Source: Candidatus Eiseniibacteriota bacterium
GTDB lineage: Bacteria > Eisenbacteria > RBG-16-71-46
DNA length: 40,149 bases
Direction: 5' to 3'
NCBI GenBank assembly: GCA_034678345.1
Contig: JAXDBZ010000038.1
Coordinates: forward strand, 1 to 40,149
The translations under genes and the position numbers were made by a program. This document shows, in pieces, positions 1,847 to 39,500 of the stretch (positions are counted from its first letter, which is position 1; each line of letters opens with the position of its first letter). Under the pieces are notes generated by a model that saw only the letters and a list, made by a program, of their open reading frames with translations, did not search any database and had not been told where the DNA came from.

Positions 1847-3459
1847 TTCGTATCGGATTCGCGGAAGTGGATGCTCTGGAACGTCCAGAAGCGGGCGCCG
1901 CTCTTCCACGCGTCGGCCGGCAGGCCCGCCTTGCGGCACAGGTTCTCGAGCAGGGCCGTGCGGTCCCAGCCCTGCTCGGGCGCCACCTGCGGCAGGAAGA
2001 CGGCGGTGCGCCCGTCCTTGCGGATCTGCACGCCGTCGCGGCCGACGACGATCCCCTCGGGCCCGGCGACCGGGGCGAGCGGCGTGAGCACGGAGATCTC
2101 GATCTCGACCTCCTTCAGCTCGCGCTCCTCGAGCGGGGCGAAGCGCGGGTCCTCGAAGGCCGCGGCCAGCGCCATGGCCTGCACGGTGGCGCCGAGGGGC
2201 CGGTCCGGGGTCATGTGGCCGATGCAGCCGCGCAGTTCGCCCGCCTCGAAGAGGGTGACGAACGCGCCGCGGAGGCGTTGCGCCGCCGCCGGCAGGTCGT
2301 GGGGCAGCGGCGCGGCGCCGCCGGTCGCGAACCAGTGCTCGAGGGTCGTGCGCGCGAGCCGCAGCAGGGTGCGCTTCGCCGCCGCGTCCAGCGTCGCATC
2401 GGCGTCCGCAGGCCCGGGCGGCGGGGCCCCCGCGGGATCGCCCGCTCCAGGTCCGGGCGGGGAGGCGCCCGGTCCGGACGGGGCATCCGATCCGCCGGGA
2501 CCGGCGGTGAACGAGACCGCGCCGTAGCCCACCACGCGCGTGCGGTCGTGGGGCGGCACGTCGCCGCTGTTCGCCCACGAGACCAGCGTGCCGCGGGTGG
2601 CGCCGAGGGTGCGCGCCGCCGCCATCGCCGTCATCACCGCGCCCGCCCCGCAGGCGCAGGTCTCGAGTCCTGGGTATCCGGCGTTCATCTGGGCCTCCAT
2701 GGCCGCCTGCACCCCGGCCGGGTCGAGCCGCGCGATGGCGGCGAGCACGGCGTGGTCGGAGGCGCGGCTGCCTTCGGAATCGGGATAGTGGGAGAGGTCG
2801 CTGCTCGCCACGACGAGCGGGCGGTACCCGGCGAGCGTCCGGGCCAGCGCGCGGCCGATGCGCGCGCAGGTCGCGGGCTCCTCGCTGCCCACCACCACGG
2901 GCAGGACGGGGACTCCGGGGAAGAGCACCTGGGCGAAGGGCAGCTGCACCTCGATCGAGTGCTCGCGGACGTGCACGCGCGGGTCGGCGTTGAAGTCGCC
3001 GCCGGCCGCCCGCAGCGCGGCGGCGGCCCTCGCGTCCACCCGCGCCACGCCGAGCGGGGTGCGCATGCCGGAGCCCGCGTAGACCGAGGCGCCGCGGAAG
3101 GCGGCGGTGGTGTGGTTCGTGCCGAGGACGACGATGAGGCCGTAGCGGTGCCCGCGGGCCTGCGCCCAGCCGTCGGCGGCGATCCGGCCGGAGAAGTGGT
3201 AGCCCGCGTGTGGCACCACGAGGGCGACCGGTCTCGCGCCGGCCGCGGTCCTGGCCCCGGCGAGGAGGCTCCGCACCTCCCCGGCGAGCTGCGCGGGATC
3301 GGCCGGGTAGAACTGGCCCGCCACCGCCGGGGCGCGCACCTCGGACGTCGCCGCGTCCACCGCGCAGGCCGGCGCGGCCGCGACCGGGAAGGCGGCGAGC
3401 GCGAGCAGGAGCGCCGGACGGCGCAGCGCCGTCGCGGGCGCGGGCGCGGGCGACCTCAT
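1843..3459 (-). CDS. AmmeMemoRadiSam system protein B (Memo-like) fused to protein A (AMMECR1 domain), with an N-terminal signal-peptide-like leader
   Basis: 538-aa ORF. The N-terminal half carries Memo motifs: AGQFYPADP, VVPHAGY, LGTNHT, SSDLSHYP, ETCACGAGA. A Pro/Gly-rich linker (GPGGSDAPSGPGASPPGPGAGDPAGAPPPGP, about 2400-2505) follows. The C-terminal half is AMMECR1-like: GAFVTLFEAGELRGCIGH, AFEDPRF, IEISVLTPL, GRTAVFLPQV. The N-terminus MRSPAPAPATALRRPALLLALAAFPVAAAPACA looks like an export signal. The start overlaps the upstream stop (ATGA at 3456-3459). Confidence 0.85.
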   Translation of the reverse strand: MRSPAPAPATALRRPALLLALAAFPVAAAPACAVDAATSEVRAPAVAGQFYPADPAQLAGEVRSLLAGARTAAGARPVALVVPHAGYHFSGRIAADGWAQARGHRYGLIVVLGTNHTTAAFRGASVYAGSGMRTPLGVARVDARAAAALRAAGGDFNADPRVHVREHSIEVQLPFAQVLFPGVPVLPVVVGSEEPATCARIGRALARTLAGYRPLVVASSDLSHYPDSEGSRASDHAVLAAIARLDPAGVQAAMEAQMNAGYPGLETCACGAGAVMTAMAAARTLGATRGTLVSWANSGDVPPHDRTRVVGYGAVSFTAGPGGSDAPSGPGASPPGPGAGDPAGAPPPGPADADATLDAAAKRTLLRLARTTLEHWFATGGAAPLPHDLPAAAQRLRGAFVTLFEAGELRGCIGHMTPDRPLGATVQAMALAAAFEDPRFAPLEERELKEVEIEISVLTPLAPVAGPEGIVVGRDGVQIRKDGRTAVFLPQVAPEQGWDRTALLENLCRKAGLPADAWKSGARFWTFQSIHFRESDTK

Positions 3460-4403
3460 CGTTCCCCCCTCGTGTCGTGGCGCGGCACGTGCGGCGGCAG
3501 ATCGAGCGCGGCCAGCTCGGCGCCGGGCGGGCCCGCCGTGATCGTGACCGCACCATAGCCCACGACCCGCTCTCGGTCACCCATTGGAGCGTCGCCGCTG
3601 TTGGCGTGCGAGACCACGGTACCGCGCGTGGCCCCCAGCGCGCGGGCCGCCGCCAGGGTGGCGAGCAGCGGCGAGGCGCCGCAGGCGCAGGTGGCGAGGC
3701 CCTCGCGGCCGGCGCTCTCCTCGGCGCGGATCGTGCGACGCAGGCCGTCGGGGTCGAGCCGGGCGATGGCGGCGAGCACGGCGCGATCGGCAGCGACCGC
3801 GTCGTCGTAGCCCGGGTAGTGCGACAGGTCGCTGCTCGAGACGACCAGCGCGCGCCGGCCGGCGAGCACGCCGGCCAGTGCCACGCCGAAGCGCTCGCAG
3901 CGGCGGGGGTCCTCGCTGCCGACGACCACCGGCAGGATGGGCACGCCCGGCAGCACCGTCTGCACGAAGGGCAGCTGCACCTCGATCGAGTGTTCGCGCT
4001 CGTGCGGCCGCGGGTCGGAGGTGCACTCGCGGTCGGCCGCGAGCAGCGCCGACGCCGTGTCGCCGTCCACCGGCACGGTGCCGAGCGGGGTGCGGAAGCC
4101 GCCGCCGAGGAAGACCGCGACCCCCGAGAAGTTCGCCACCGTGTGGTTGGGGCCGAGCAGGACGACGAGGTCGTAGCGCTGGTTCTCGGTCTGGCGCCAC
4201 CCGTCGGCGGCGATCAGTCCCGAGTACACGTAGCCGGCGTGCGGCACGACCAGCGCGATGGGCCGCGACCCACGCTCCGCGTGGGTGCCCCCGAGCGGGG
4301 GCAGCGCCCGCTCGAGCAGGGCCCGCACGGTCGCCTCGAGCCGCGCCGGGTCGGCGGGGTAGAAGCTGCCGGCCACCACCGGGGAGCGCACCGCCGGTCG
4401 CAT
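3456..4403 (-). CDS. AmmeMemoRadiSam system protein B (Memo-like), stand-alone paralog without a signal peptide
   Basis: 315-aa ORF with the same Memo motifs as the neighbouring fusion: AGSFYPADP, VVPHAGY, LGPNHT, SSDLSHYP, ATCACGASP, VVGYGAV. The start lies 4 nt after the stop of the radical SAM gene. Confidence 0.85.
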   Translation of the reverse strand: MRPAVRSPVVAGSFYPADPARLEATVRALLERALPPLGGTHAERGSRPIALVVPHAGYVYSGLIAADGWRQTENQRYDLVVLLGPNHTVANFSGVAVFLGGGFRTPLGTVPVDGDTASALLAADRECTSDPRPHEREHSIEVQLPFVQTVLPGVPILPVVVGSEDPRRCERFGVALAGVLAGRRALVVSSSDLSHYPGYDDAVAADRAVLAAIARLDPDGLRRTIRAEESAGREGLATCACGASPLLATLAAARALGATRGTVVSHANSGDAPMGDRERVVGYGAVTITAGPPGAELAALDLPPHVPRHDTRGER

Positions 4404-4407
4404 CGTC

Positions 4408-5670
4408 TCAGCTCCACACGCCCGGGATGGCGCGGCCGCACTTCGGGCAGCGGCCGCCGCGCAGGTGGACGGCGCTCACGAACATGCCGTCGCGCTCGAT
4501 CACCTTCGTGCCGCAGCCCGGGCACCAGGTGTGGTTGCCGGGATGCCCCGGCAGGTTGCCGACGTAGGCGAAGCGCAGACCCTGCGCCATGCCGATCTCT
4601 CGCGCGCGCTCGAGCGTGGCCACCGGCGTGGCGGGGAGGTTGCGCAGCTGGTAGTCGGGGTGGAAGCGCGTGAAGTGCACCGGCACGTCGGGGCCCAGCT
4701 CGCCGGCGACCCACTTCGACAGCTCCGTGAGGTCGCGCGGCGAGTCGTTGAGCGTCGGCACGACCAGGTTGACGATCTCGAGGTGCACGCCGCTCCTGGC
4801 CACCTGCCGCAGGCTGCGCAGCACCGGCTTCAGCTCCGCCCCGCACACGTCGCGGTAGAAGTCCTCGCGGAAGCCCTTGAGGTCGATCTTGATGGCGTCG
4901 AGCACGCCGCACAGCTCGCGCAGCGGGGCCTCGTTCATGAAGCCGCAGGAGACGAGGACGGAGCGCCGGCCCAGTGGCCGGGCCGCCCGGGCGATGTCGG
5001 CCATGTACTCGAGGAAGACGGTGGGCTCGTTGTAGGTGAAGGCGATGACCGGGGCGGCGCGGTCCACCGCGGCGCGCGCGATGGCGGCCGCCGGCACGCT
5101 CGGCTGCGCGTAGTCCTCGGGGCGGGCCTGCGAGATCTCCCAGTTCTGGCAGAACTTGCAGCGCAGCGGGCAGCCGCTGGTGGCCAGCGAGTAGGCCGCG
5201 GCTCCCGGCAGGAAGTGGAAGAACGGCTTCTTCTCGATCGGGTCCACGTGGATGCTCATGGGCCGCCCGTACACCAGGCTCCTGAGCTCGCCGCCGACGT
5301 GGATGCGCGCCCCGCAAGCGCCGCGCTCACCCTCGGCCAGCGTGCAGCCGCGCGCGCAGAGCTGGCAGCGCACGAGCGTCCTCGCGTGCCGCGGTGCCGT
5401 GCCGGGCCCGGGGGTGCCCGCGCGCAGCGTGGGTCCGCCCGCGGCGTGGCAGGCGGCGCAATCGGTCGAGGCGGTCGAGACCCAGTAGCGCGCGCGGGGC
5501 GCGCGGCGGACCAGCTCGGCGCGGGGATCCCCGGCCGCGCGCGCGGCCGGCGGCAGAAGGATCTCGAGGCCGCGGGCGGCGGAGTGCAGCGCGCCGCCGG
5601 CCAGCAGGGCGCCGCAGCCCGCGCCGGTGGTGCGCAGGAAATCGCGCCGGGAGAAGGTGGATCGGGACAT
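4408..5670 (-). CDS. AmmeMemoRadiSam system radical SAM enzyme (PflA-like activase fold) with an N-terminal twin-arginine signal extension
   Basis: I trimmed the 904-aa track ORF to the internal ATG at 5670, which has GAGG about 7 nt upstream. N-terminus: MSRSTFSRRDFLRTTGAGCGALLAG (Tat-type motif). Family-typical Cys box: VRCQLCARGCTLAEGERGACGAR. Also DPIEKKPFFHFLPG, the radical SAM CX3CX2C motif CPLRCKFCQNWEISQ (about 5148-5174), and a C-terminal zinc ribbon CPGCGT...CPKCG. Confidence 0.85.
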   Translation of the reverse strand: MSRSTFSRRDFLRTTGAGCGALLAGGALHSAARGLEILLPPAARAAGDPRAELVRRAPRARYWVSTASTDCAACHAAGGPTLRAGTPGPGTAPRHARTLVRCQLCARGCTLAEGERGACGARIHVGGELRSLVYGRPMSIHVDPIEKKPFFHFLPGAAAYSLATSGCPLRCKFCQNWEISQARPEDYAQPSVPAAAIARAAVDRAAPVIAFTYNEPTVFLEYMADIARAARPLGRRSVLVSCGFMNEAPLRELCGVLDAIKIDLKGFREDFYRDVCGAELKPVLRSLRQVARSGVHLEIVNLVVPTLNDSPRDLTELSKWVAGELGPDVPVHFTRFHPDYQLRNLPATPVATLERAREIGMAQGLRFAYVGNLPGHPGNHTWCPGCGTKVIERDGMFVSAVHLRGGRCPKCGRAIPGVWS

Positions 5671-5717: not shown

Positions 5718-7301
5718 CTACTCCCGGCCCGCGAACAGGCTCGGATAGCGGGCGAGGAAGGCGATGGCGTGCCGCAGCTCGCGCAGGTCCACCGCCTCGC
5801 CGATCTTGTGCGCGTTCTGCATGATGCCGGGCCCCAGCCCGAAGATGGCCGGGTGCCGCATGGTCCCGGCGGTGACCCAGCGCTTGGACTCGGGGACCAC
5901 CAGCGCGGGCTCGTCCACCGGCGCGGGCCAGCCCACGCCGTCGGTGGAGAAGCGCCAGTACCCGAGCCGCGGCTCGCGCCGCAGCGAGCCGCCGCCCTCG
6001 CGCGGCTCGTCCACGTGCGGGGTGACCACGGCGCGGTAGCAGGCCCGGGCCGCGGCGATGGCCGGGTGGTCCTCGGGGGTGCGCCAGGCCCCGTAGACCC
6101 GCGGGTTGCCCGGCGTGTAGCCGCGCCAGGTCGTCTCCTCGTAGCGTGGCACGGCGATCTCGACGTGGAGGCCGTCGGCGATCGCCCGGGCGACGCTGTC
6201 CAGGCCGGCGACGGCGCGCAGGGCGTCGTCGGGCGACTCGCCGGCGGTGAGCCGGCGGTCGAAGCGGAAGGTGAAGCGCTCGGGCACCGAGCAGTCGCTC
6301 GCCGTCTCGACCTTCGCCCAGGTGGCGGTGCGCGAGCCGGGTCCCAGCCGCTCGTCGTGGCCGAAGCTCTCGCCACGCTCGTGCCGCGCTGCCGCCTCGG
6401 CGAGGATGGCCGCGCCGTGCTCGAGCGGGTTGAGGCCCTCGCGCGGGATCGAGCCGTGGCAGGACCGCCCGGTGACGCGCACCTCGATGGTCATGCGGCC
6501 CCGCTGACCGCAGCGGATGACCAGGGCGCCGTCCGTGGTGTCGCCGCTCATCTCGGTGAGCACGACGACGTCGGGCAGCATGGCGGGCGGCGCGCCGGGG
6601 AAGACCCGGCGCGTCAGGTAGAGCGGGCCGCCGCCCTCGTTGTCCTCCTCGGCCGGGGTGACGTAGCTGCGTACGACGACGCCGCGCAGGGCGCCGGCGG
6701 CGCGCAGCTCGACCAGGATGCGCGAGGCGACGATCTGCGCCACCACCCCGCCGAGCTGGTCGGCCGCCCCGCGGCCGAAGACCAGGTGCTCCCACTCGTC
6801 GTCGGGCGGCAGCCAGCCCAGCTCGCTCCGCAGGAAGCCGCGGTCGAGCCGCGCCGGGTCCACCAGGCCGTCGTAGGGGTCGAGTCCCCCGGTGCGCTCG
6901 TGCCAGCGGTCGCGCAGCGCGTGTACCGTGTCGGCGTGGCCGTCGAGGTAGACGACGCGCTTGTCGCGGCGCGCCACGCCGTCGTCGGGGTCCTCGAGCA
7001 CCCAGTAGAGGTTGCCGAAGGCGTCGAAGCCGACGTCGTCCTCGTGCAGCAGGCCGCCGGTCTCGAGCAGCGCCTGGCGCAGGTAGCGCAGGCGCGGGCC
7101 CTCGTGGTTGCTGGTGCCGCACAGCGGATCGCCGCCGGACCCCGACCCCGGGGGTGCCCCGGCGGGTGCCCCCGGGGCGCGGTCCACGTGGTCGGCGGGG
7201 ATGCGGATGGCCTCGCGCAGGAGGGAGGCCGCCAGCGGCAGGTCGCGCGCGGCGGCCGAGGCGATGGCCGCGTCCAGCCCGCCGCGCGCTCCGTCGCTCA
7301 T
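5718..7301 (-). CDS. M20 family metallopeptidase / amidohydrolase (ArgE/DapE/YgeY-like), 527 aa
   Basis: M20 metal and catalytic motifs: LDGHADTV, GRGAADQLGG, PAEEDNEGGG, and the dimerisation-domain-like GRMTIEVRVTGRSCHGS. The ATG at 7301 lies 1 nt after the stop of the upstream carbamoyltransferase. The N-terminal region has a low-complexity insert, APGAPAGAPPGSGSGGDP. Confidence 0.8.
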   Translation of the reverse strand: MSDGARGGLDAAIASAAARDLPLAASLLREAIRIPADHVDRAPGAPAGAPPGSGSGGDPLCGTSNHEGPRLRYLRQALLETGGLLHEDDVGFDAFGNLYWVLEDPDDGVARRDKRVVYLDGHADTVHALRDRWHERTGGLDPYDGLVDPARLDRGFLRSELGWLPPDDEWEHLVFGRGAADQLGGVVAQIVASRILVELRAAGALRGVVVRSYVTPAEEDNEGGGPLYLTRRVFPGAPPAMLPDVVVLTEMSGDTTDGALVIRCGQRGRMTIEVRVTGRSCHGSIPREGLNPLEHGAAILAEAAARHERGESFGHDERLGPGSRTATWAKVETASDCSVPERFTFRFDRRLTAGESPDDALRAVAGLDSVARAIADGLHVEIAVPRYEETTWRGYTPGNPRVYGAWRTPEDHPAIAAARACYRAVVTPHVDEPREGGGSLRREPRLGYWRFSTDGVGWPAPVDEPALVVPESKRWVTAGTMRHPAIFGLGPGIMQNAHKIGEAVDLRELRHAIAFLARYPSLFAGRE

Positions 7302-7302
7302 C

Positions 7303-8448
7303 TCACTTCGCCAGGGCTTCGAGCCGCCGCGCCAGATCGGGGGTCTTGGCCACGGCCAGCAGGGCCATGATGACGTACATCTTGTACTGCGCCTGGCGGG
7401 CGACGTTCACGGCGTGCTGCTTCATCACGCCGTGCGACACCTCGTCACCGATGTCGGCGGGCAGCGGGTGCATGTAGAGCGCGTTCCCGCCCTTCGTCAG
7501 CCCCATGCGCCGCTCGTCGCAGATCCAGTCCTTGTGCGCGGCGTTCCCGGCCAGCGCCGCCTTCTCGATCTCCGCCAGCTTCGCCTTGTCCTTGGACTTG
7601 TTGGCGGCCACGCGCGCGAGCATGAGGTCGTAGGGGCCCCAGGACTTGGGATAGACGATGTCGGCGCCCGCGAAGGCGTCGTCCATCGAGTTCGTGACGC
7701 GGAACGAGCCGCCCGAGGCCTTCGCCGCGGCGTGCGCGTACTCCATCGTGTCGGGCATGAGGTGGTAGCCCTCGGGGTGGGCGAGCACGACCTCGGCGCC
7801 GAAGCGGGTGAACAGCATCGAGCAGCCCTGCGCCACCGACAGCGGTTTGGCGTAGGAGGGCGAGTAGGCCCAGGAGACGGCGATCTTCCTGCCCTGCAGG
7901 CCGCCCGGGTGGCATTCGCGCATCCACATCAGGTCGGCCATGGTCTGCGTCGGGTGGTCGATGTCGCACTGCAGGTTCACGACCGGGACCTTGCGCGGGT
8001 CCTTCACCGCGGCCAGGTAAGCGTCGATACCCTGGGCGACGTCGCGCATGAAGGAGTTGCCCTCGCCGATGATCATGTCGTGGCGCACGCCCAGCGCGTG
8101 GGAGTTCATGCCCAGCATGGCGCCGGTCTCGACGGCGGTCTCGCCGTGCGAGACCTGCGTCGAGCCGCCATCCACGATGACCGGGCTGAGGCCGAGTCGG
8201 GCGCAGGCGCCCGCCCACGCCGACTTCGTGCGCGTGGACTGGTCGAAGAACAACGCCCAGCCCAGCTCGTCCTCGAACAGGGCGGTGGACCGGCCGGCGT
8301 AGTCGAGGCCGGCGAAGCGGCCGATCACCGCCATGAGCGTCTCCAGCTCGGGCGTCGTCCAGTCGCGCGTCAGCAGCATGTTGCGGCCGAACAGCGCGTC
8401 CAGGGCGGCCTGGGCGGGGACCGGCGGCAGGGTCGTCACGGGGCTCAT
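7303..8448 (-). CDS. ygeW: YgeW-type (knotted) carbamoyltransferase family protein
   Basis: I trimmed the 981-aa track ORF to the ATG at 8448, which is preceded by GAAGGAG. Transcarbamylase motifs: FFDQSTRTKSAW (STRTx carbamoyl-phosphate loop), GVRHDM, CDIDHPTQTMADL (HPTQ), YMHPLPA. The 382-aa length and overall layout fit the YgeW subgroup better than ArgF or PyrB. The subgroup assignment is by eye only. Confidence 0.75.
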   Translation of the reverse strand: MSPVTTLPPVPAQAALDALFGRNMLLTRDWTTPELETLMAVIGRFAGLDYAGRSTALFEDELGWALFFDQSTRTKSAWAGACARLGLSPVIVDGGSTQVSHGETAVETGAMLGMNSHALGVRHDMIIGEGNSFMRDVAQGIDAYLAAVKDPRKVPVVNLQCDIDHPTQTMADLMWMRECHPGGLQGRKIAVSWAYSPSYAKPLSVAQGCSMLFTRFGAEVVLAHPEGYHLMPDTMEYAHAAAKASGGSFRVTNSMDDAFAGADIVYPKSWGPYDLMLARVAANKSKDKAKLAEIEKAALAGNAAHKDWICDERRMGLTKGGNALYMHPLPADIGDEVSHGVMKQHAVNVARQAQYKMYVIMALLAVAKTPDLARRLEALAK

Positions 8449-8606
8449 GCGGGCTCCTTCTGCGGGTGCGGGAGCCGGCGGGCCGGGAGGGCCCGGCCGG
8501 CGCCACGGGATGGCAGCGCGCGGGAGAGCGCGGGTACGAAAACGGCCCGACATCCTACCCCGCGGGCCGGGGGGCGTCCACCCGGGCCGCGCCGGCGCGC
8601 GGGGGT

Positions 8607-8635
8607 TTGCCCGCCCCGGGCGTGTCCCGTATCCT
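8607..8635 (+). promoter_or_regulatory. Candidate sigma70-like promoter for the plus-strand PLP/carbamate kinase operon
   Basis: TTGCCC (8607-8612), a 17-nt spacer, then TATCCT (8630-8635). It sits about 40 nt upstream of the ATG at 8677, which is preceded by GGAGAAGGAG. Confidence 0.3.
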
Positions 8636-8676
8636 TCACCCCTTATACCACCCCGCGCGGGGAGAAGGAGCCGCTC

Positions 8677-10155
8677 ATGCCGTCGAAGCACACCATCAAC
8701 GAAGCCGTCCTCGCCCGGGCCGTGGCCCGCTGCCGCGAGCGCAACATCATCATCCCCACCTTTGCCGAGCAGAAGGACCCGGCGCTCGTGCCCGCGCCGA
8801 TCCGCAAGCGGCTGGCCGGCGTCGGGCTGTGGGACGTCAACCCGCTCAACCTGTACCGCATCACGTGGAAGAACGAGCCGAAGGCGAAGGGTGGGCTGTA
8901 CAACCAGGGCAACTGGATCGAGTTCCCGCCCGAGCTGACCGGCGTCCCCGCACGCATCGTCGGGCTGGTGGGCAAGTACTTCCCGACCGGTGCCCACAAG
9001 GTCGGCGCCGCCTTCGGCTGCCTGGTGCCCCGGCTGGTGAGCGGCGAGTTCGACCCCGAGAACCACAAGGCGGTCTGGCCCTCGACCGGGAACTACTGCC
9101 GCGGCGGCGCCTTCGACTGCGCCCTGCTCGCCTGCAAGGCCATCGCCATCCTGCCCGAGGGCATGTCGCGCGAGCGCTTCGAGTGGTTGCACGAGATCGG
9201 CACGGACGAGGTCATCGCCACGCCCGGCACCGAGTCGAACGTCAAGGAGATCTACGACAAGTGCTGGGAGCTGCGGAAGACGCGCGGCGACGAGGTCCTG
9301 ATCTTCAACCAGTTCGACGAGTTCGGGAACGCGGTCTGGCACTACACCATGACCGGCTCGATCATCGAGGAGATCCACGAGCGGATCCGCCGGCCCGACG
9401 ACCGCCTCGCCGTCTACGTCTCGGCCACGGGCTCGGCCGGCACCATCGCCGCCGGCGACTACCTGCGGACGAGGTTCCCGCACCTCAAGGTCGTGGCGAC
9501 CGAGGCGCTGCAGTGCCCGACGCTGTTCGCCAACGGCTATGGCGCGCACCGCATCGAGGGCATCGGCGACAAGCACGTGCCCTGGGTGCACAACGTGCGC
9601 AACACCGACATGGTCGCGGCCATCGACGACGAACAGACGATGAGCCTGCTGCGCCTGTTCAACGAGGAGACCGGCATCGAGTTCCTCGCCGGCCAGGGAC
9701 TGAAGGCCGACTTCCTGAAGAGCCTGCCGCTGCTCGGCATCTCCAGCATCTGCAACCTGGTGGCGGCCATCAAGGCGGCGAAGTACTACGAGCTGGACGG
9801 TCGCGACGTGCTGTACACGGCGCTCACCGACTCGATGGAGCTGTACGACTCGCGCAAGCAGGAGTTGCGCGACGAGCGCGGCCCCTACACCCGCGAGCAG
9901 GCGGCCATGGACTACGCGCGCTACCTGCAGGGCGCGGGAACGGACTACCTGCAGGAGCTGGGCTACCGCGACCGCAAGCGGCTCCACAACCTGAAGTACT
10001 TCACCTGGGTGGAGCAGCAGGACAAGACCTCGGAGGAGCTCGCGGAACTGTGGGACCCGGATTTCTGGACCGGGATCTGGGCCCAGGTCCCCGAGTGGGA
10101 CGAGCGGATCCGCGAATTCAACGAACGCACCGGGCTGCTCCAGCAGCTGACCTGA
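8677..10155 (+). CDS. PLP-dependent enzyme of the tryptophan-synthase-beta/cysteine-synthase fold (PALP) with a ~150-aa helical C-terminal extension; specificity unknown
   Basis: 492 aa from the ATG at 8677, which has a strong SD (GGAGAAGGAG). Candidate PLP lysine in YFPTGAHKVGAAF (AAG at 8998-9000). Fold-type II markers: WPSTGNYCRGGAF, YVSATGSAGTIAAG, HRIEGIGDKHVP. The upstream part of the 1015-aa track ORF is Arg/Gly junk. Confidence 0.75.
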   Translation: MPSKHTINEAVLARAVARCRERNIIIPTFAEQKDPALVPAPIRKRLAGVGLWDVNPLNLYRITWKNEPKAKGGLYNQGNWIEFPPELTGVPARIVGLVGKYFPTGAHKVGAAFGCLVPRLVSGEFDPENHKAVWPSTGNYCRGGAFDCALLACKAIAILPEGMSRERFEWLHEIGTDEVIATPGTESNVKEIYDKCWELRKTRGDEVLIFNQFDEFGNAVWHYTMTGSIIEEIHERIRRPDDRLAVYVSATGSAGTIAAGDYLRTRFPHLKVVATEALQCPTLFANGYGAHRIEGIGDKHVPWVHNVRNTDMVAAIDDEQTMSLLRLFNEETGIEFLAGQGLKADFLKSLPLLGISSICNLVAAIKAAKYYELDGRDVLYTALTDSMELYDSRKQELRDERGPYTREQAAMDYARYLQGAGTDYLQELGYRDRKRLHNLKYFTWVEQQDKTSEELAELWDPDFWTGIWAQVPEWDERIREFNERTGLLQQLT

Positions 10156-10265
10156 GCCGCCGGACGGCCCCGCCGCCGCCGCGCCCCGCCCGATGGGCGC
10201 CGCGCGCGAGGGAGGCGGGGCGGACGCCCGCGGCGGCACGCACGGCACACGCGGAACGGGAGACC

Positions 10266-11216
10266 ATGACGAACGAGAAGAAGCTGGCGATCCTCGCCGT
10301 GGGCGGGAACTCGCTGATCATCGACGAGAAGCACCGGACGGTGGAGGACCAGTACGCCGCCGTCGAGGAGACGTGCCGGCACATCGCCGGACTGGTGAAG
10401 AAGGGCTACCGCGTGGTGGTGACGCACGGCAACGGCCCGCAGGTCGGCTTCATCCTGCGGCGCAGCGAGCTGGCCGCCCACGAGCTGCACGAGGTCCCGC
10501 TCGACTCCTGCGGCGCCGACACCCAGGGCGCCATCGGCTACCAGGTGCAGCGCGCCCTGTACAACGAGATGAAGGACTGGCCCGAGAAGCCCGTGGTCGC
10601 GACCGTGGTCACCCAGGTGCTGGTGGACCGCACGGACCCGTCGTTCCAGAAGCCCTCGAAGCCGATCGGCTCGTTCATGGACGAGGCGAAGGCGAAGCTG
10701 CACCGCGAGCGGGACAAGTGGGACATCGTCGAGGACGCCGGCCGCGGCTTCCGCCGCGTCGTCGCCTCGCCGCGGCCCCAGCGGATCGTCGAGCTGGAGG
10801 CCATCCGGCGCCTGCTCGAGAACGACATCCTGGTGGTGGCGGTCGGCGGCGGTGGTATCCCGGTGGTCGAGGACGAGCAGGGCCACCTGCAGGGCGCGGC
10901 TGCGGTCATCGACAAGGACCTCGCCACCAGCCTGCTGGCGCGCGAACTGAAGGCCGACGTGCTCATCATCTCGACCGCGATCGAGAAGGTCTGCCTGAAC
11001 TACCGCAAGCCCGACCAGAGGGACATCGACCGCATGAACCTGGCCGAGGCCAAGCGGTACCTGGCCGAGGGGCACTTCGCGCCGGGCAGCATGAAGCCGA
11101 AGATCGAGGCGATCGTCGAGTTCCTCGAGGCGGGCGGGACGCAGGCGCTCATCACCGACCCGCTGCACCTCGTGCCCGCGCTGGAGGGGAAGACGGGCAC
11201 CTGGATCATCGCATGA
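10266..11216 (+). CDS. arcC: Carbamate kinase
   Basis: 316 aa. Matching segments: KLAILAVGGNSL, VVVTHGNGPQVG, DSCGADTQGAIGY, RRVVASPRPQRIVE, VVAVGGGGIPVV, AVIDKDLATSLLA, FAPGSMKPKIEA. This is a textbook carbamate kinase layout. The start was trimmed from the track ORF beginning at 8466. Confidence 0.9.
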   Translation: MTNEKKLAILAVGGNSLIIDEKHRTVEDQYAAVEETCRHIAGLVKKGYRVVVTHGNGPQVGFILRRSELAAHELHEVPLDSCGADTQGAIGYQVQRALYNEMKDWPEKPVVATVVTQVLVDRTDPSFQKPSKPIGSFMDEAKAKLHRERDKWDIVEDAGRGFRRVVASPRPQRIVELEAIRRLLENDILVVAVGGGGIPVVEDEQGHLQGAAAVIDKDLATSLLARELKADVLIISTAIEKVCLNYRKPDQRDIDRMNLAEAKRYLAEGHFAPGSMKPKIEAIVEFLEAGGTQALITDPLHLVPALEGKTGTWIIA

Positions 11217-12451
11217 CCACCGGCCGGGCCGCGCTGGCCGGGCTGCGCTGCGTGCGCTGCGGGACGCTCACGCCCGCCGCCGACGACCTCTACGTCTGCC
11301 CGGCCTGCGGCGCCAACACGCAGGTCGAGTACGACTACGACGCCGTGAAGCGCGACTGGTCGCGCGAGGCCCTGGCCGCCGACCGCGACCCGACCCTGTG
11401 GCGCTACCTGCCGCTGCTGCCGGTGAGCGCGCGGCTCGAGGGCCCGCCGGTGGGCGGCACGCCGCTCGTGCCGGCGCCGCGGCTGGCGAAGGAGTTGGGA
11501 CTCGCGCAACCGGTGCTGCTCAAGGACGACGGCCGCAACCCCAGCGCCTCGTTCAAGTGCCGCGCCAGCGCGGTGGCGCTGCGGCGCGCGCTGGACGTGG
11601 GCCGCACGCTGGTGACCGGCGCCTCGACCGGCAACGCCGCCTCGGCCACCGCCGTGCTCGCCGCCGCGCCGGGCATCCGCACGCGCATCTTCGTGCCGAA
11701 GAACGCGCCGCGCGCCAAGATCGCCCAGCTGCTGACCTTTGGCGCCGAGGTCCTGGCGGTCGAGGGGACGTACGACCAGGCCTTCGACCTGTGCCTCGAG
11801 GCGACGCGGCGCTTCGGCTGGTACAACCGCAACACCGGCTTCAACCCCTGGACGCGCGAGGGGAAGAAGACGGTCTCGTTCGAGATCTGCGAGCAGCTCG
11901 ACTGGCAGGTGCCGGACCTCGTCGTCGTGCCGGTGGGCGACGGCAACATCCTGTCGGGGGTCTGGAAGGGCTTCGTCGAGTTCCAGCGCCTCGGTTTCAT
12001 CGAGCGGCTGCCGAGGCTGCTCGCCGTGCAGGCCGAGGGCAGCGCCGCCATCGTGAACGCCGCCGCCGGCGACGGCGTCATCCGGCCGGTCTCGGGCGAG
12101 ACGGTGGCCGACTCGATCTCGGTGAGCCTGCCGCGGGACGGCGAGGCGGCGGTGCAGGCCATCCGCGCCTCGGGCGGCTTCGGCGTCACCGTGCCCGACG
12201 CGGCCATCCTCGCCGCCATCGGCGAGCTGGCGCGCGGCGCCGGCGTGTTCGCTGAGCCCGCGGCGGCGGCGACGTGGGCCGGCCTGAAGGAGGCGGTCCG
12301 GCAGGGCCGCGTGGACCCGGCCTGGCGCGTGGTGGCGCTCGTCACCGGCAACGGCCTCAAGGACGTGGCCGCGGCCATGAAGACGGCGGGGGAGCCGCGG
12401 GTCATCCCGCCCGACCCGTCCGTGCTGGACACGTTGTTCCCGGAAGGATAA
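11213..12451 (+). CDS. Threonine-synthase-like PLP enzyme (fold type II) with an N-terminal zinc ribbon; function not assigned
   Basis: 412 aa. The ATG overlaps the carbamate kinase stop (ATGA at 11213-11216). Zinc ribbon: CVRCGT...CPACG. PLP-lysine motif NPSASFKCRAS (11549-11569). Also TGASTGNAASA, VVVPVGDGNILSG and LVTGNGLKD. Confidence 0.75.
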   Translation: MTTGRAALAGLRCVRCGTLTPAADDLYVCPACGANTQVEYDYDAVKRDWSREALAADRDPTLWRYLPLLPVSARLEGPPVGGTPLVPAPRLAKELGLAQPVLLKDDGRNPSASFKCRASAVALRRALDVGRTLVTGASTGNAASATAVLAAAPGIRTRIFVPKNAPRAKIAQLLTFGAEVLAVEGTYDQAFDLCLEATRRFGWYNRNTGFNPWTREGKKTVSFEICEQLDWQVPDLVVVPVGDGNILSGVWKGFVEFQRLGFIERLPRLLAVQAEGSAAIVNAAAGDGVIRPVSGETVADSISVSLPRDGEAAVQAIRASGGFGVTVPDAAILAAIGELARGAGVFAEPAAAATWAGLKEAVRQGRVDPAWRVVALVTGNGLKDVAAAMKTAGEPRVIPPDPSVLDTLFPEG

Positions 12452-12518
12452 GAGGAGACGGTCATGGCGGCCGGCGTCGCGCTCGGCCGCCACCACCCAC
12501 GATCAAGGGAGAGGAACG

Positions 12519-13475
12519 ATGAGGAGCTTCATCGGACGTGACATCCTGTCGCTCAGGGACTTCGAGCGCGACGACTACACGCGCATCTTCCAGGTCTGCG
12601 AGCAGCTGGCGCCCGCCGCGCACAACCGCCGCAACATGGACCTGTGCAAGGACAAGACGCTGCTGACCGCGTTCTACCAGCCCAGCACCCGCACCCGCAT
12701 GTCCACCGAGGCCGCCATGCACCGCCTCGGCGGGCACGTGCTCGGCTTCTCCGACGCCAAGATGACCCGCGCCGGCGACTTCTACCAGGAGTCCATCCAG
12801 GACACCGTGCGCATGCTCGAGTACTACGCCGACGTCATCGCCATGCGGCACTACCAGCTCGGCGCGCCGGCCGAGGCGGCGAAGCACTCCTCGGTGCCCA
12901 TCATCAACTGCGGCGACGGCTGGGGCGAGCACCCCACCCAGGTGCTCACCGACCTGTACACGATCTGGCGCGAGCGCGGCACGCTCGACGGCCTGCGCTG
13001 GCTGTGCGTCGGCGACCACCGCATGCGCACCATGCACTCGATCGGCCACGCCGCCACCCAGTTCGACATGGAGCTGGACGTCGTGTACCCGCCCGACATG
13101 GCGCCGACCGAGGAGTTCAAGCAGGAGCTGCGCGGCCGCAACGTGCGCTACAACGAGTTCAAGAGCACCAAGGACTGCATCGCCAAGGCCGATATCATCT
13201 ACATCGAGCCGGTGGTGCAGGCCGACTACACCAAGTCGCGCGTGGACGCGGCCGACGCCAAGAAGGGTCTGACGCCGCCCGAGTACCAGATCACCCGCGA
13301 GATGATGCGCGACCTGGCCAAGCGGGACGCCATCGTGCTGCACTCGCTGCCGCGCATGGACGAGCTGCCCACCGACGTGGACCGCACCCGGCACGCCCGC
13401 TACTGGATCGAGGCGGCGAACGGCGTCGTGCTGCGCATGGCGCTCATCGCCCTCGTACTGGGGCGCGCCGAGTAG
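12519..13475 (+). CDS. Aspartate-carbamoyltransferase-like (PyrB-fold) transcarbamylase with a divergent second-substrate site
   Basis: 318 aa. Matching segments: FYQPSTRTRMS, IAMRH, GEHPTQVLTDL, VGDHRMRTMHS, LHSLPRMDELPTDVD, NGVVLRMALIALVLG. It is collinear with PyrB. However, the segment aligning with the PyrB aspartate-binding TRVQKER reads EPVVQAD (13206-13226). No pyrI or pyrC is adjacent. Confidence 0.8.
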   Translation: MRSFIGRDILSLRDFERDDYTRIFQVCEQLAPAAHNRRNMDLCKDKTLLTAFYQPSTRTRMSTEAAMHRLGGHVLGFSDAKMTRAGDFYQESIQDTVRMLEYYADVIAMRHYQLGAPAEAAKHSSVPIINCGDGWGEHPTQVLTDLYTIWRERGTLDGLRWLCVGDHRMRTMHSIGHAATQFDMELDVVYPPDMAPTEEFKQELRGRNVRYNEFKSTKDCIAKADIIYIEPVVQADYTKSRVDAADAKKGLTPPEYQITREMMRDLAKRDAIVLHSLPRMDELPTDVDRTRHARYWIEAANGVVLRMALIALVLGRAE

Positions 13476-13504
13476 CGGCTCCGGCAGGGGCTTACGCGCG
13501 TTCG

Positions 13505-13548
13505 GGGGCGGACCGGACCAGCTTTCGGCTGGTGCCCGGGTCCGCCCC
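13505..13548 (+). terminator. GC-rich hairpin downstream of the PyrB-like gene (candidate terminator)
   Basis: GGGGCGGACC (13505-13514) pairs with GGTCCGCCCC (13539-13548). An inner stem ACCAGC/GCTGGT encloses the loop TTTCG. Only a weak T tract (CTTTGG) follows. Confidence 0.45.
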
Positions 13549-13814
13549 GGCCTTTGGTGCCGGCGCACATCGGGTGTTCCCGGCGGCGCGGCGGGGGCGT
13601 AGAATCGGGGCCGTCGAGAGATGGGCCCTGCGGACCCGCCCGGGTACCGTGGGCCCGCGCGGCCGTCTCCCTGGCCGCTTTCTTCGCGTAACCGCGAGAG
13701 CATCCCCCGGGCGCTGCCCCCGAGTGTCCCGGACGATTCTCGGCCCCGTCCCCCGCAGAGGCCACATCCCGGCGACGCCCGTCGTGCGCCCGCCATCCCA
13801 CGAGGAGGATGATC

Positions 13815-14375
13815 ATGCCTCGGATCCTTCTCATCGCGCTCCTGATTCTCGCGCTCGCGTCCTGCTGGGCGGCCCCGGCGGCTGCGCCGCCGCCGGACTC
13901 GAAGGCATGGGGCAAGGTCAGCACCACCACCGGTCCGCCGCGACCGGGCGCCGCCGAAGAGCAACGCGCCAAGCTCGCGGGGCTGGATCCCCTCGTCCCG
14001 GGCCGGCAACCCGGGGCAGCCGGGCGAGCGCCGCGCGCGCGCTCGTTGGCGGAACTCCCGTCGCCGGAGCGGCCGCGCGCGGCGGGAACCTCGCGAACCT
14101 ACACGGGGCCCGAGCTGGCCGCCTGCGAGGCGCGCATCCGGGCCAAGCTCGAAGCCTCGGCGCGCGGGGCGCCCGCCGCGCGCTCACTCGCCGGGCTGAC
14201 GGCACCGCCCAAGTCCGCCGCGGCGCCCGTGCCGCGCGCCTCCTCTCCCGACCTCGGCCCGCGCACGCCGCCCGTCACGCGCACCGAGATCCCCGGCACC
14301 CCGCTGAACGACGAGCAGCGCGCGAAGCTCGCTCGCTCGCGCGCCGCCGTCCGCCCGGCGCCGGACCGCCCGTGA
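13815..14375 (+). CDS. Small secreted Ala/Pro/Arg-rich protein, probable lipoprotein
   Basis: GAGGAGG at 13802-13808 lies 6 nt before the ATG at 13815; the track start at 13809 is also possible. N-terminus MPRILLIALLILALASCWAAP has a lipobox-like LASC. Internal duplicated segments: EEQRAKLAGL / DEQRAKLARS and ARSLAELPSP / ARSLAGLTAP. The stop is 7 nt before the next gene. Confidence 0.6.
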   Translation: MPRILLIALLILALASCWAAPAAAPPPDSKAWGKVSTTTGPPRPGAAEEQRAKLAGLDPLVPGRQPGAAGRAPRARSLAELPSPERPRAAGTSRTYTGPELAACEARIRAKLEASARGAPAARSLAGLTAPPKSAAAPVPRASSPDLGPRTPPVTRTEIPGTPLNDEQRAKLARSRAAVRPAPDRP

Positions 14376-14382
14376 GGCCGCC

Positions 14383-17300
14383 ATGCACGCGAACCGACTC
14401 CATCCGCTCGCGACGGGCGCCCTCGTCCTGGCGCTCGCCTGCCTCTTCGGCGGTCTCACGCCCGGCTCGGCCGGTGCCCAGTGCGAATACCCGAGGCTGA
14501 ACAGCGGCACGCCGGTCGCGGTCGGCACGTCGCCCAGCTTCTTCAGCTTCGGCCAGCCCGTCAACTACTGGACCGTCATCGCGGTGCAGCCGCCGAGCGC
14601 CGCGGACTGGGACCTCAGCGTCTGGCAGGACACCTACACGTACCCCGTCTGCGTGTCGAACCTCCTGGCGGGCTCCTCGTACGGCGGCAGCACCGTGGAC
14701 TTCGTCGTCGGGGACTACAACTTCAACGCCTACGGTACCCGCTACGTCCAGGCCAATCTCTACTCGGGGACGGGAGACGCCACGGTGGAGTGGAACGCCA
14801 CGGACGGCCTGCTCGGCGTCAACGCCGCCGCCTTCCAGGTGGACTTCGCCGGGGGCACCTCGCCCTTCATCCACGTGTGGGACGTCGCTCTGGAGGCCGG
14901 GCGAACGTACCGGTTCAACTTCTACCCGTACGGTTCGGCCGCCAGCCACCTGCTGCTATTCAGCAACACCGGCCAGGGGACGTGCTGGAAGCGGCGCGCG
15001 GACGCCGAGTTCGACGTCACCTCGAGCACGACCTACGTCGCGCCCGTCACGGGGTACTACGGCCTGGTGGTGGTCAACGACAACGCGGCGGGCGGCACGG
15101 TCATCGCGAACGTGGAGGCCTGCACGACGCCCATCCCCCTCGTCAGCGGCGTATCGCAGTCGTCCGATCTGGTCTCCAACTACTACTCGTTCGACCAGCA
15201 GCAGAACTACTGGACGGCGATCGGCCTGCGGTGCGACGGCAGCTCCGGGTTGAGCGTGTACCGCTCCGCGCCGGGCGACATCACCACGGGCTGTCTCGCG
15301 GACGAGCTCGCCAGCTCGAGTCCCTTTGCCGGCATGGCGGGCGTGGTGGTGGGGGACTTCAACTACAACACGCCGGGCACGTACTACGTCGGCGCCTGGC
15401 GCTCGATCAGCCTGCCGCCGCTCACGGGGGTCACGCAGTGGGACGACGACCGCGACCAGCTGACTGTGAACGGCATGCTCACCAACGGGACGATGAGCAG
15501 CAGCGACGTCGTGCGCGCGTGGGAAGTGTACCTGTACGGGGGCACGACCTACCGCTTCACCTTTGGCCGCAGCGGCGCCGACCTCAGCCTGCTGCTCTTC
15601 CGCAACCCGGCCGCAGGCGAGTACTGGGCGGGACGGTCGAGCGCGGTCCTGAGCACGGAGGGCGACGCCGACTACACGGCCCCCAGCTCCGGTCTCTACG
15701 GCGTGGTGATCGTGAACGACGACGGCGCCGCGGGCTCCTACGCCGTCGGGGTCGGCACCTGCACGACGCCGGTGGCGCTCACGTACGACCAGCCCTGGGT
15801 CACCCCGCTGGGGGAGAACTACGTCTCCTGCGACATGGTGTGGGCGGGCTGGGAAGCCCTCGGCGTGCGGGGCAGCGACCCGGGGACCGACTGGGACATG
15901 GTCGTGCAGGGCACGGACGCCGCCGCCTTCCCCGCGTGCCGCGGGCCGGACATCGCCGTCTCGGACCTGCCGCCGCCCGCGGCGGACTTCGCGATGGTGT
16001 TCTTCCCGAACCCCTACAACGGAATCCGCCACGCGTGGCCGCACACCTACTACGGCCAGGGGAGCGGCACCGGCACGGTCACGTGGACGGGCGCCTACTT
16101 CGGGTTGCTCCCCAACGACCAGTTGATCCAGTGCACCTTCCAACCGACGGGCCAGTTCCTCTTCCTGCGGACCGCCAGCCTGACCGCCGGCCATACGTAC
16201 TGGCTCAGGTATTACGGCCCGAGCACGTCGGACGGCCGGCTGATGCTGTTCCGCAATCCGTCCAGCGGCGAGTACTGGGTGCCCCGCAGCGGTGCCGTGG
16301 CGCAGACCACGGGCGGCGAGGACACGCCCTACACGGCGCCCGCCACGGGATACTACGCGGCGGTGGTCGTGGACGACGCTAGCGAGGTGTCCGACCACGC
16401 CCTGTTCGGCATCGGGGAGTGCACGCCGCCCACCGCCCTCTCCTCGGGCACAGTGGCCTACTCCCTCCTCGCCCGGACCTACTACTCGTTCACGGAGTCC
16501 AGCCCCTACTGGACCGCGGTGGCGGCCCGCGTCCCCGCGCCGTGGAACCTCGGCGCCTACGCCAATCCGAGCGGCGGCACCTACCCCGAGTGCCTGAGCG
16601 GCGGCCTCGCCGCGTCGGAAGGTGGCTCGATGCGCGCCGCGGTCTTGGTCGGCGACTTCAACCACAATCCCTACGGCACGTACTACCTGTACTCCGGGAT
16701 CGAGGGCGGCCTGTGGTACATCAGCGGGGCGTACGTGGACTGGCAGGCCGGCTCCCAAATGATCGGCGTGGGCGACCCGCCCGTCGCACGCACGACCGGG
16801 CCCGACGACGTGCTGGAGGTCTGGGACTGCTGGCTCGAGCCGCAGAAGGACTACACGTTCAAGCTCAGCCACGCAGGGGCAGCGAACCTCAAGCTGCTCG
16901 TCTTCCGCAACACGGGCGGCGGCACGTACTGGGCCGGGCGCGACGACGCGCAGGTCGAGCTGACCGGCCAGGCGACCTGGAGGACCACCGGGACCAGCAG
17001 CGAGTACTACGGGCTCGTGGTGGTCAACGACAACGGCGAGTCGGACAGCTACACGTTGCAGGTGGTGGACGCCGGTGCCTCGGCGGTGGACGACGCGCCG
17101 CCCTCCGCCACGGAGTTCGGGAGCGTCCGGCCCAACCCGGCGCGGGGAGACGTGCGCCTCGAGTTCGCGCTGCGCGAGGCGGCGGACGTGTCGTTCCGGG
17201 TCCTCGACATGGCCGGGCGCGTGGTGGCGACGCTACCCGCGCGGGCCTGCAGCGCGGGCCGGAGCGCCGCGACGTGGGACGGACGCGGTCCGGACGGGTC

Positions 17301-26605: not shown

Positions 26606-26715
26606 CAGAGCCGCCACAGGGGCCCCCTCAAGGCCGTCCGTGGACGGCCGCGAGGAGTCCCCTAACTTCATTCAGGTGCCGGCGCCCCCTCGGTCTCCGG
26701 GACCACGGAGAACCG

Positions 26716-36281: not shown

Positions 36282-36326
36282 TAGGAACTCGGCCGGGGCG
36301 AGGCAAGGGCCGCGGCGCGGACCGGC

Positions 36327-39483: not shown

Positions 39484-39500
39484 GAGGCGCGGTTGACGCC

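Follow-up and report, generated by a model that had tools for sequence, protein, structure and literature searches.

The window analysed here, a stretch of 40,149 nucleotides from a Candidatus Eiseniibacteriota bacterium (contig JAXDBZ010000038.1, assembly GCA_034678345.1), carries at positions 5718-13475 six genes encoding two different transcarbamylases, a carbamate kinase, an M20 hydrolase and two fold-type-II pyridoxal phosphate (PLP) enzymes. On balance, we favor the view that these genes, probably together with a second M20 hydrolase gene at 17420-18568, make up the lower, ATP-conserving module of a reductive (2,8-dioxopurine) fermentation of uric acid and purines. The pathway type is known; the variant proposed here, with a second transcarbamylase derived from aspartate carbamoyltransferase (ATCase) and a pair of PLP enzymes replacing DpaL, is not described in the papers on the pathway consulted here. 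Gene families of reductive uric acid breakdown are widespread in environmental phyla among the related loci, combined with three uncharacterized enzyme families that public records systematically misannotate as aspartate carbamoyltransferase, threonine synthase and cysteine synthase.

In Escherichia coli and clostridia, urate is reduced to 2,8-dioxopurine by XdhD/XdhAC, dearomatized by YgfK or UacX and ring-opened by SsnA and then HyuA to give 2,3-diureidopropionate (DUPA) (bioRxiv 10.1101/2025.04.24.650524; PMC12507026). YgeW then phosphorolyses one ureido group of DUPA and YqeA uses the resulting carbamoyl phosphate to make ATP, YgeY removes the remaining ureido group by hydrolysis, and YgeX (DpaL) converts 2,3-diaminopropionate to pyruvate (bioRxiv 10.1101/2025.04.24.650524; PMC12507026). 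The pathway was worked out in gut bacteria in 2025 and has been described as restricted to selected anaerobes. The two 2025 studies disagree on which ureido group YgeW removes, and CysK-like and ThrC-like enzymes and an additional transcarbamylase are absent from both accounts (bioRxiv 10.1101/2025.04.24.650524; PMC12507026).

Organization and recurrence of the gene set

At a G+C content of 70-78%, open reading frame (ORF) lists of the window consist mostly of shadow frames, and genes were therefore called from third-position GC (GC3 frame plots). Families were assigned with Pfam and NCBIfam profiles, whose scores were compared with the curated cut-offs, and every fold assignment of the six genes is backed by both collections. 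The calls reproduce the six genes, families and positions given in an earlier reading of the letters alone (the sequence-only reading), including the second M20 hydrolase nearby. The features, with lengths in amino acids (aa), are as follows:

5718-7301, minus strand: long M20 hydrolase, YgeY-like, 527 aa; candidate N-carbamoyl (ureido) amidohydrolase
7303-8448, minus strand: YgeW-type (knotted) catabolic transcarbamylase of a divergent clade, 381 aa
8449-8676: divergent intergenic region, 228 bp; presumed promoter/regulatory region
8677-10155, plus strand: CysK-fold (fold-type-II) PLP enzyme, "PLP492", 492 aa
10266-11216, plus strand: carbamate kinase (carbamoyl phosphate + ADP to ATP + carbamate), 316 aa
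11213-12451, plus strand: Zn-ribbon ThrC-like fold-type-II PLP enzyme with an N-terminal CxxC...CxxC zinc ribbon, 412 aa
12519-13475, plus strand: PyrB-fold "pseudo-ATCase" transcarbamylase, 318 aa
13659-13678, plus strand: terminator-like hairpin 3' of the PyrB-like gene, from a consensus scan; possible operon end, weak
17420-18568, minus strand: second YgeY-like M20 hydrolase, 382 aa
18659-20194, plus strand: SufS-like class-V aminotransferase-fold protein (Pfam Aminotran_5), 511 aa

Two divergent units flank the intergenic region, the leftward one comprising the YgeW-type transcarbamylase and then the long M20 hydrolase, and the rightward one PLP492, carbamate kinase, the ThrC-like enzyme and the PyrB-like transcarbamylase, in that order. 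The tight packing noted earlier was confirmed, with an ATGA overlap of the carbamate kinase stop and the ThrC-like start (11213-11216) and a single base (7302) between the YgeW-type stop and the long M20 start. GGAG ribosome-binding sites precede the first gene of both units. Promoter scans of 8449-8676 found no sigma-70-like site and no sigma-54 site above chance, and the region has no Rfam match; a purine-type riboswitch, sought by Rfam scan across the whole window, was not found, the only riboswitch being a cobalamin one far from the cluster. The number of terminator-like sites in the scan does not exceed the shuffle expectation, which limits the weight of the hairpin at 13659-13678.

Carbamate kinase is full length and the only module protein clearly above curated cut-offs (PRK12352, 402 bits with a cut-off of 266; TIGR00746, 366.5 bits with a cut-off of 358.25). 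Like the cluster of E. coli and Clostridium sporogenes (xdhD-ygfM, ygfK, ssnA, hyuA, ygeW, ygeY, ygeX, yqeA; bioRxiv 10.1101/2025.04.24.650524; PMC12507026), the window has a YgeW-type transcarbamylase, putative YgeY-type M20 proteins and a carbamate kinase, and shares the logic by which a ureido group becomes carbamoyl phosphate and then ATP. Unlike that cluster, it lacks xanthine dehydrogenase (Xdh), YgfK, SsnA, HyuA and DpaL, none of which was matched in the 40 kb by tblastn with the E. coli proteins, in agreement with the sequence-only reading, which had seen no hyuA/ssnA-type amidohydrolase, xanthine dehydrogenase or recognisable DpaL. It also adds a PyrB-like transcarbamylase and two fold-type-II PLP enzymes in the DpaL slot, and its YgeW and M20 proteins are divergent, scoring below the NCBIfam cut-offs.

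The set is not a chance juxtaposition, as it recurs whole or in part among 160 related loci fetched in total (designated by L numbers). The same arrangement is found in relatives at 76-95% protein identity (L001, L084, L085) and at 65-89% (L002); L002 (DATKKS010000144.1) is binned as "Candidatus Saccharimonadales", which is likely a binning error because its module is Eisenbacteria-like. Parts of the set recur across many phyla, and in three Phycisphaerales loci (L011, L017, L109) a PLP492, a carbamate kinase, a ThrC-like and a PyrB-like protein 66-72% identical to those of the window adjoin SsnA and Xdh. This conserved association supports the initial suggestion that the genes follow the logic of the E. 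coli ygeW locus with different parts, as the families involved are embedded in Xdh/YgfK/SsnA clusters in related loci.

The PyrB-like transcarbamylase

The residues of the PyrB-like protein show that it is no genuine ATCase. It scores 233.3 bits with TIGR00670 (cut-off 236.95) and 215.5 with NF002032 (cut-off 263). In ATCase (E. coli numbering), K84, R229 and Q231 bind the beta-carboxylate of aspartate and R167 binds the alpha-carboxylate. All 81 members of the PyrB-like clade, including the window protein, keep the carbamoyl-phosphate motifs STRTR, R105, HPTQ and HSLPR as well as R167, and all 81 have K84 replaced by Y and R229 by P; in addition, K83 is replaced by D and T228 by E, and there is a 4-aa insertion in the Q231 region. 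A true ATCase in L009, used as a control, keeps K84, R229 and Q231. On this alignment, the clade has lost the binders of the aspartate beta-carboxylate while retaining its carbamoyl-phosphate ligands and R167. No pyrI or pyrC was found near the gene in Pfam and NCBIfam scans of the window.

A metagenome scan returned at least 551 relatives, the 80 retained being 69-95% identical, and gene context was counted in 26 PyrB-anchored loci of at least 12 kb. SsnA, Xdh or YgfK is present in 22 of the 26 (Xdh alone in 20), a second transcarbamylase resembling ornithine carbamoyltransferase (OTC) or YgeW lies directly alongside in 23, carbamate kinase is found in 20 and HyuA in 10, and an M20 gene in only 1. 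One of these contexts, L094, encodes a D-hydantoinase, a xanthine permease, XdhD, SsnA, a genuine DpaL (385 bits, cut-off 276), PyrB-like and OTC-like transcarbamylases, carbamate kinase and XdhBCA, and is the E. coli gene set with a PyrB-like gene in the YgeY slot. L143 and L163 have the full set with two PLP genes in the DpaL slot. The order in L163 (8-oxoguanine deaminase, PLP-511, PLP-466, SsnA-like protein, F420-dependent reductase, PyrB-like, OTC-like, FAD subunit, XdhD-like protein, D-hydantoinase, Xdh) covers all functions of the E. coli cluster, a pair of transcarbamylases standing in for YgeW plus YgeY and a pair of PLP enzymes for DpaL.

Two further observations concern this last type of cluster. 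The reductase standing in the place of YgfK (L163 9044-9985, also in L164 and L165) is an F420-dependent luciferase-like oxidoreductase, and L163, L164 and L165, with their two transcarbamylases and two PLP enzymes, have no carbamate kinase within 10 kb of an operon that opens with 8-oxoguanine deaminase.

The clade most likely corresponds to the pseudo-ATCases of Barba et al. 2013, judged by context and taxonomy. Group 1 of these proteins is the Rubrobacter xylanophilus ureidoglycine carbamoyltransferase (UGTCase), which phosphorolyses allantoate, a diureido acid, in vitro, and group 2 is the Nocardioides sp. JS614 protein, which adjoins ygeW, xdhABC and hyuA and for which no substrate was proposed (PMC4016543). 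As in pseudo-ATCases, STRT and HPTQ are kept, the RxQ aspartate motif is missing and HPLP has become an invariant HSLP, in a sequence that is ATCase-like and closest to the P. abyssi ATCase. As in group 2, a ygeW-like gene is adjacent, with xdh and hydantoinase genes in related loci (L091, L094, L112, L163); of this context the window has the ygeW-type gene only. Relatives 74-75% identical occur in a Nocardioides metagenome-assembled genome and in Fodinibacter luteus. Unlike group 2, the alignment of the clade shows no obvious match to the tabulated motif GX[SC].

The two PLP enzymes

PLP492 belongs to Pfam PALP and scores 100.7 bits with the CysK model (cut-off 351), and its best sequence match in the PDB reaches at most 69 bits. 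In an AlphaFold2 model (predicted local distance difference test score 82), a core resembling CysK/CBS carries helical extensions of ~70-100 residues at either end, and a Foldseek search of the PDB returned only generic CysK/CBS cores at 19-26% identity and template modelling scores of 0.72-0.79 relative to the target, giving no functional clue. Like CysK/CBS, PLP492 retains the PLP lysine, the STGN carboxylate loop, the glycine-rich phosphate loop and the GISS motif; the lysine motif is GAHKVGAA instead of SxKDR, and there is an invariant lid, EGIGDKH. These features would fit a beta-elimination or beta-replacement reaction on an alpha-amino acid, diaminopropionate for instance, without proving it. 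Unlike CysK/CBS, its genomic context is purine catabolism, not sulfur assimilation.

Hidden Markov models for DpaL, OrtB, SbnA and cysteate synthase gave only weak matches, far below their cut-offs, with both PLP enzymes (43 bits for PLP492 with the SbnA family). The PLP492 family is compact (356 representatives at E ≤1e-30 among 1.84 billion) and present in at least 578 species-representative genomes, with members 65-92% identical across Eisenbacteria, Myxococcota, Planctomycetota, Verrucomicrobiota, Kiritimatiellia, Gammaproteobacteria, Elusimicrobiota and others. None of its distant full-length relatives (32-49% identity) has a named NCBIfam family.

Proteins of the window and of E. coli were mapped on 80 fetched PLP492 loci, of which the 62 of at least 12 kb were used for counting. 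SsnA, Xdh or YgfK accompanies PLP492 in 32/62 (Xdh in 24), the ThrC-like enzyme in 32, a YgeY-type M20 protein and a YgeW-family protein in 27 each, carbamate kinase in 18 and HyuA in 2. Se-dependent Xdh (in L019, 960 bits with a cut-off of 830), YgfK and YgeY among these neighbors exceed their NCBIfam cut-offs, and SsnA falls just below. Three gammaproteobacterial loci (L048, L067, L072) have a ten-gene, single-strand operon of the order YgfK-SsnA-XdhB-XdhC-XdhA-PLP492-YgeY-transcarbamylase-carbamate kinase-ThrC-like. DpaL is absent from all 80 PLP492-anchored loci, and among the PyrB-anchored loci 4 have DpaL only, 18 PLP492 only and none both (Fisher's exact p ~0.005 by hand calculation, on loci that are not phylogenetically independent). 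PLP492 is thus like DpaL/YgeX in fold type and cluster position and excludes it in the clusters examined; unlike DpaL/YgeX, it matches no DpaL model and shows no specific sequence similarity, and two proteins, not one, fill the slot.

Some PLP492 loci carry genes of separate interest. In L021 and L032, a YgeV-like sigma-54-dependent regulator (40-41% identical to E. coli YgeV) is divergent from PLP492, with no other cluster genes within reach. A Verrucomicrobia purine cluster (L026) has an Fe-S L-serine dehydratase gene (12712-14022, minus strand; motif GPSSSHT) between YgeY and YgeW, which hints at serine as an intermediate in that cluster and is found in none of the other 159 loci. This gene came to light when unassigned ORFs were considered as hydantoinase substitutes and rejected: several are antisense shadows, and the ORF at 12697-14064 of L026 hid the serine dehydratase on the other strand.

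The ThrC-like protein passes TIGR00260 (201.7 bits, cut-off 167.1) and misses PRK08197 (294.9, cut-off 303) and the other ThrC models; with the DpaL model it scores 44 bits (cut-off 276). Like threonine synthase (2ZSJ, 1UIM), it has the fold and the PLP lysine, with 37-39% identity to solved short-class ThrCs and its best PDB match in 2ZSJ (212 bits). Unlike threonine synthase, it has an N-terminal zinc ribbon and neighbors that are carbamate kinase, transcarbamylases and PLP492 rather than thrA and thrB, neither of which was found near the gene in Pfam and NCBIfam scans of the window. We aligned 51 family members with the Thermus thermophilus and Aquifex enzymes (T. thermophilus numbering). 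R160 is replaced by T, L or M and is never Arg, N188 is D in 51/51, S155 is G or A, T88 is A in 51/51 and Q164 is K in every member; four solved ThrCs keep S155, R160 and N188. These three residues, with T88, are those that we take to bind the phosphate of O-phosphohomoserine, in line with their conservation in the four solved ThrCs. By these replacements, the ThrC-like protein is not an authentic threonine synthase, its phosphate pocket having been lost, and an invariant Asp188 where a phosphate ligand is expected would be well matched to an amino or ureido substituent. Among the 62 PLP492 loci, the ThrC-like gene usually adjoins carbamate kinase or PLP492, and it or a more distant PALP paralogue nearly always stands beside PLP492 or the 45-50% identical paralogue of PLP492 (for example in L091, L143 and L163).

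The YgeW-type transcarbamylase and the M20 hydrolases

The YgeW-type protein matches the NCBIfam YgeW model best (380 bits, below the cut-off of 453), with E. coli YgeW (3Q98, 336 bits) as the best solved structure. Clustering separated four transcarbamylase clades associated with the purine clusters, namely the PyrB-like, a short OTC-like (~325 aa), the true YgeW (61% identical to E. coli YgeW) and the window type (~46% identical), the last being a cluster of six members.

YgeY is the best model for both M20 proteins, which score 156 (long) and 292 bits (second) with a cut-off of 321. The long protein (Pfam Peptidase_M20 and M20_dimer) has five insertions; an alignment with E. coli YgeY shows its H/D/EE/E/H metal ligands to be conserved, along with the YgeY-like motifs "GQRGRM..SCHGS" and "DRRLT", and it has orthologues in L001 and L084 (76%) and L010 (52%). 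The metal ligands of the second M20 protein are likewise intact. In the related contig L082, the second M20 gene directly follows the PyrB-like gene, with no 1000-aa secreted protein between them, and the gene at 17420-18568 probably belongs to the same functional neighborhood as the module. L010 was considered as a link between the clade of window-type YgeW and long M20 proteins and Xdh, and was not counted as purine evidence because its molybdenum enzyme accompanies a CoxE-type gene.

Proposed pathway

We propose that the substrate of the module is DUPA or its mono-ureido derivatives. Xdh, YgfK, SsnA and a hydantoinase would form this DUPA from urate, either from genes in another part of the genome or in other organisms that supply it. 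The sequence-only reading had taken the two transcarbamylases as a sign of either a substrate bearing two ureido groups or two sequential carbamoylated intermediates, and DUPA, which has exactly two ureido groups, supports the former. The YgeW-type transcarbamylase would phosphorolyse the side-chain (3-)ureido group, and the PyrB-like pseudo-ATCase the N-alpha (2-)ureido group of DUPA or of 3-amino-2-ureidopropionate, an assignment suggested by its retention of the alpha-carboxylate ligand R167 and the loss of its beta-carboxylate ligands. Carbamoyl phosphate from each would yield ATP via carbamate kinase, giving up to 2 ATP per DUPA, compared with 1 in E. coli. The YgeY-like M20 enzymes may offer a hydrolytic alternative or bypass for a ureido group. 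PLP492, helped by the ThrC-like enzyme, would convert 2,3-diaminopropionate to pyruvate and ammonia, the two together replacing DpaL/YgeX, with the ThrC-like enzyme acting as a racemase, as a lyase for the other enantiomer or in a serine-dehydratase-like second step. These roles of the individual enzymes are put forward tentatively, at somewhat less than even confidence. The analysis shows the gene identities, the residue changes and the conserved genomic association; the substrates, regiochemistry and ATP yield are all inferred.

If the proposal is correct, the orphan pseudo-ATCase group known since 2013 gains a function, as does the PLP492 family, labelled "cysteine synthase" in databases, and the ATP yield of anaerobic purine fermentation rises from 1 to 2 per molecule in these organisms. 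The pairing would also provide an independent handle on which ureido group goes first. It is quite possible, though less likely than not, that hundreds of uncultured species in the Planctomycetota, Verrucomicrobiota, Myxococcota, Woeseiaceae-type Gammaproteobacteria, Elusimicrobiota, Eisenbacteria and Actinomycetota phosphorolyse both ureido groups of DUPA with an ATCase-derived and an OTC/YgeW-derived enzyme, thereby doubling their substrate-level ATP, and use a two-enzyme PLP system with a chemistry other than that of DpaL, for example racemisation and L-specific elimination, or beta-replacement to serine followed by dehydration. In that case, the division between ATCase-like and OTC-like enzymes would also settle the disputed order and regiochemistry of ureido removal.

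Several observations weigh against a purine-fermenting module. Xdh, YgfK, SsnA and hydantoinase are missing from the window and from the available DNA of L001, L002 and L082-L086, and the purine link for this organism is drawn by orthology from clusters in other phyla. Roughly one PLP492 locus in two lacks a purine marker within 10 kb, and the counted loci are not phylogenetically independent. Most PLP492 clusters, including the gammaproteobacterial operon, have no recognisable hydantoinase (2/62 have one), so the variant pathway may differ in further steps. The window holds both M20 hydrolases and the PyrB-like enzyme, and a simple rule by which the PyrB-like enzyme replaces YgeY therefore fails here. 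The proposed regiochemistry follows only from the analogy of ATCase-like versus OTC-like architecture, because the published studies disagree on YgeW, and DpaL alone performs the step assigned here to two PLP enzymes.

Alternative explanations

The same absences suit a second explanation, a stand-alone route for breaking down a ureido or carbamoyl amino acid of external origin, such as albizziin, DUPA obtained by cross-feeding or some other N-carbamoyl or diamino acid. In such a route the transcarbamylases and carbamate kinase would yield ATP and the PLP enzymes would deaminate the skeleton, without a tie to the purine breakdown of the organism itself. We regard this as rather unlikely but deserving of weight. 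The upper-pathway genes are absent from the 40 kb and the contigs of the closest relatives, purine markers are missing within 10 kb of roughly half of the PLP492 genes, and the YgeW-type and long M20 proteins of the window group in a separate clade, in which the only Xdh-like neighbor (the CoxE-associated one of L010) may be unrelated. Two tandem paralogous amino-acid permease genes (34290-38306, minus strand; APC family, ~660 aa each) are also present in the window, though ~20 kb from the cluster. However, orthologues of four of the six genes (66-72% identical) adjoin SsnA and Xdh in Phycisphaerales, the contig flanks are short, so that absence within 10-20 kb is weak evidence, and the chemistry would still match the known lower pathway.

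It is improbable that the PyrB-like protein is instead a UGTCase acting on allantoate in the oxidative uric acid pathway, with the remaining genes handling ureidoglycine-derived products. UGTCase is the only assayed pseudo-ATCase, and it too has lost RxQ; a 2015 review also ascribes to it an H(T/S)LP motif, as in the window protein. Neither uricase nor allantoinase was seen in the 160 loci, allantoinase having been sought through HyuA homology and NCBIfam only and uricase by no explicit search. By their scores, the cyclic amidohydrolases of the loci are of the D-hydantoinase/dihydropyrimidinase type (572 and 463 bits, cut-off 393) rather than allantoinases, and the partner genes (SsnA, YgfK or the F420 reductase, XdhD, DpaL) are those of a reductive route ending in diaminopropionate.

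Less probable again is a biosynthetic set in which the transcarbamylases carbamoylate, making a ureido or diamino amino acid (beta-ureidoalanine, 2,3-diaminopropionate) for a secondary metabolite or siderophore. CysK-like enzymes (SbnA and homologues) and diaminopropionate transcarbamylases are known from antibiotic and siderophore biosynthesis (review), and it is the SbnA family that PLP492 weakly matches. The window nevertheless has no nonribosomal peptide synthetase, SbnB-like or tailoring genes, and it has HSLP and HPLP motifs in place of the HDLP of diaminopropionate transcarbamylases; carbamate kinase and YgeW/YgeY-type genes are catabolic markers, and the conserved partners degrade purines.

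The sequence-only reading had itself raised the possibility of housekeeping pyrB and thrC genes lying by chance beside a ygeW/arcC pair, which is effectively excluded: although the ThrC-like protein passes TIGR00260 and the PyrB-like protein falls only 3.6 bits below the ATCase cut-off, every family member examined has substitutions at substrate-binding residues of the corresponding housekeeping enzyme (81/81 and 51/51), the two families keep the same partners in many phyla, and the genes are translationally coupled, with no pyrI, pyrC, thrA or thrB nearby.

Other features of the window

Downstream of the module, the SufS-like protein at 18659-20194 scores 124 bits with the SufS model (cut-off 475). 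It is conserved in L082, and in L001 a SufS-like gene (14987-16504) lies 197 bp after the PyrB-like gene on the same strand; clusters from other phyla showed no such gene. The protein may act in selenium or sulfur handling or be a third PLP enzyme alongside the other two, and its association with the module is uncertain. Between the PyrB-like and second M20 genes (13809-17385, plus strand) are a 188-aa Pro/Ala-rich ORF and a 1000-aa protein with a C-terminal FlgD-Ig/secretion-tail-like domain; neither has a match in L082, which suggests an insertion here. A second protein with an FlgD-Ig/secretion-tail-like C-terminus is encoded at 26713-28839.

On the other side of the cluster (1843-5670, minus strand) lies an AmmeMemoRadiSam system comprising a Memo-AMMECR1 fusion, a second Memo gene and a radical SAM enzyme. 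At its N-terminus, the radical SAM enzyme is extended by ~90 aa that include a twin-arginine-type signal (SRRDFL). This extension is shared by L001 and is unusual for radical SAM proteins. A 40% identical radical SAM homologue is encoded near the cluster in L036. Toward the end of the window, a cobalamin riboswitch (39231-39381, plus strand; Rfam RF00174, 85 bits) directly precedes the gene of a TonB-dependent receptor, which begins near 39486 and is cut off by the end of the window.

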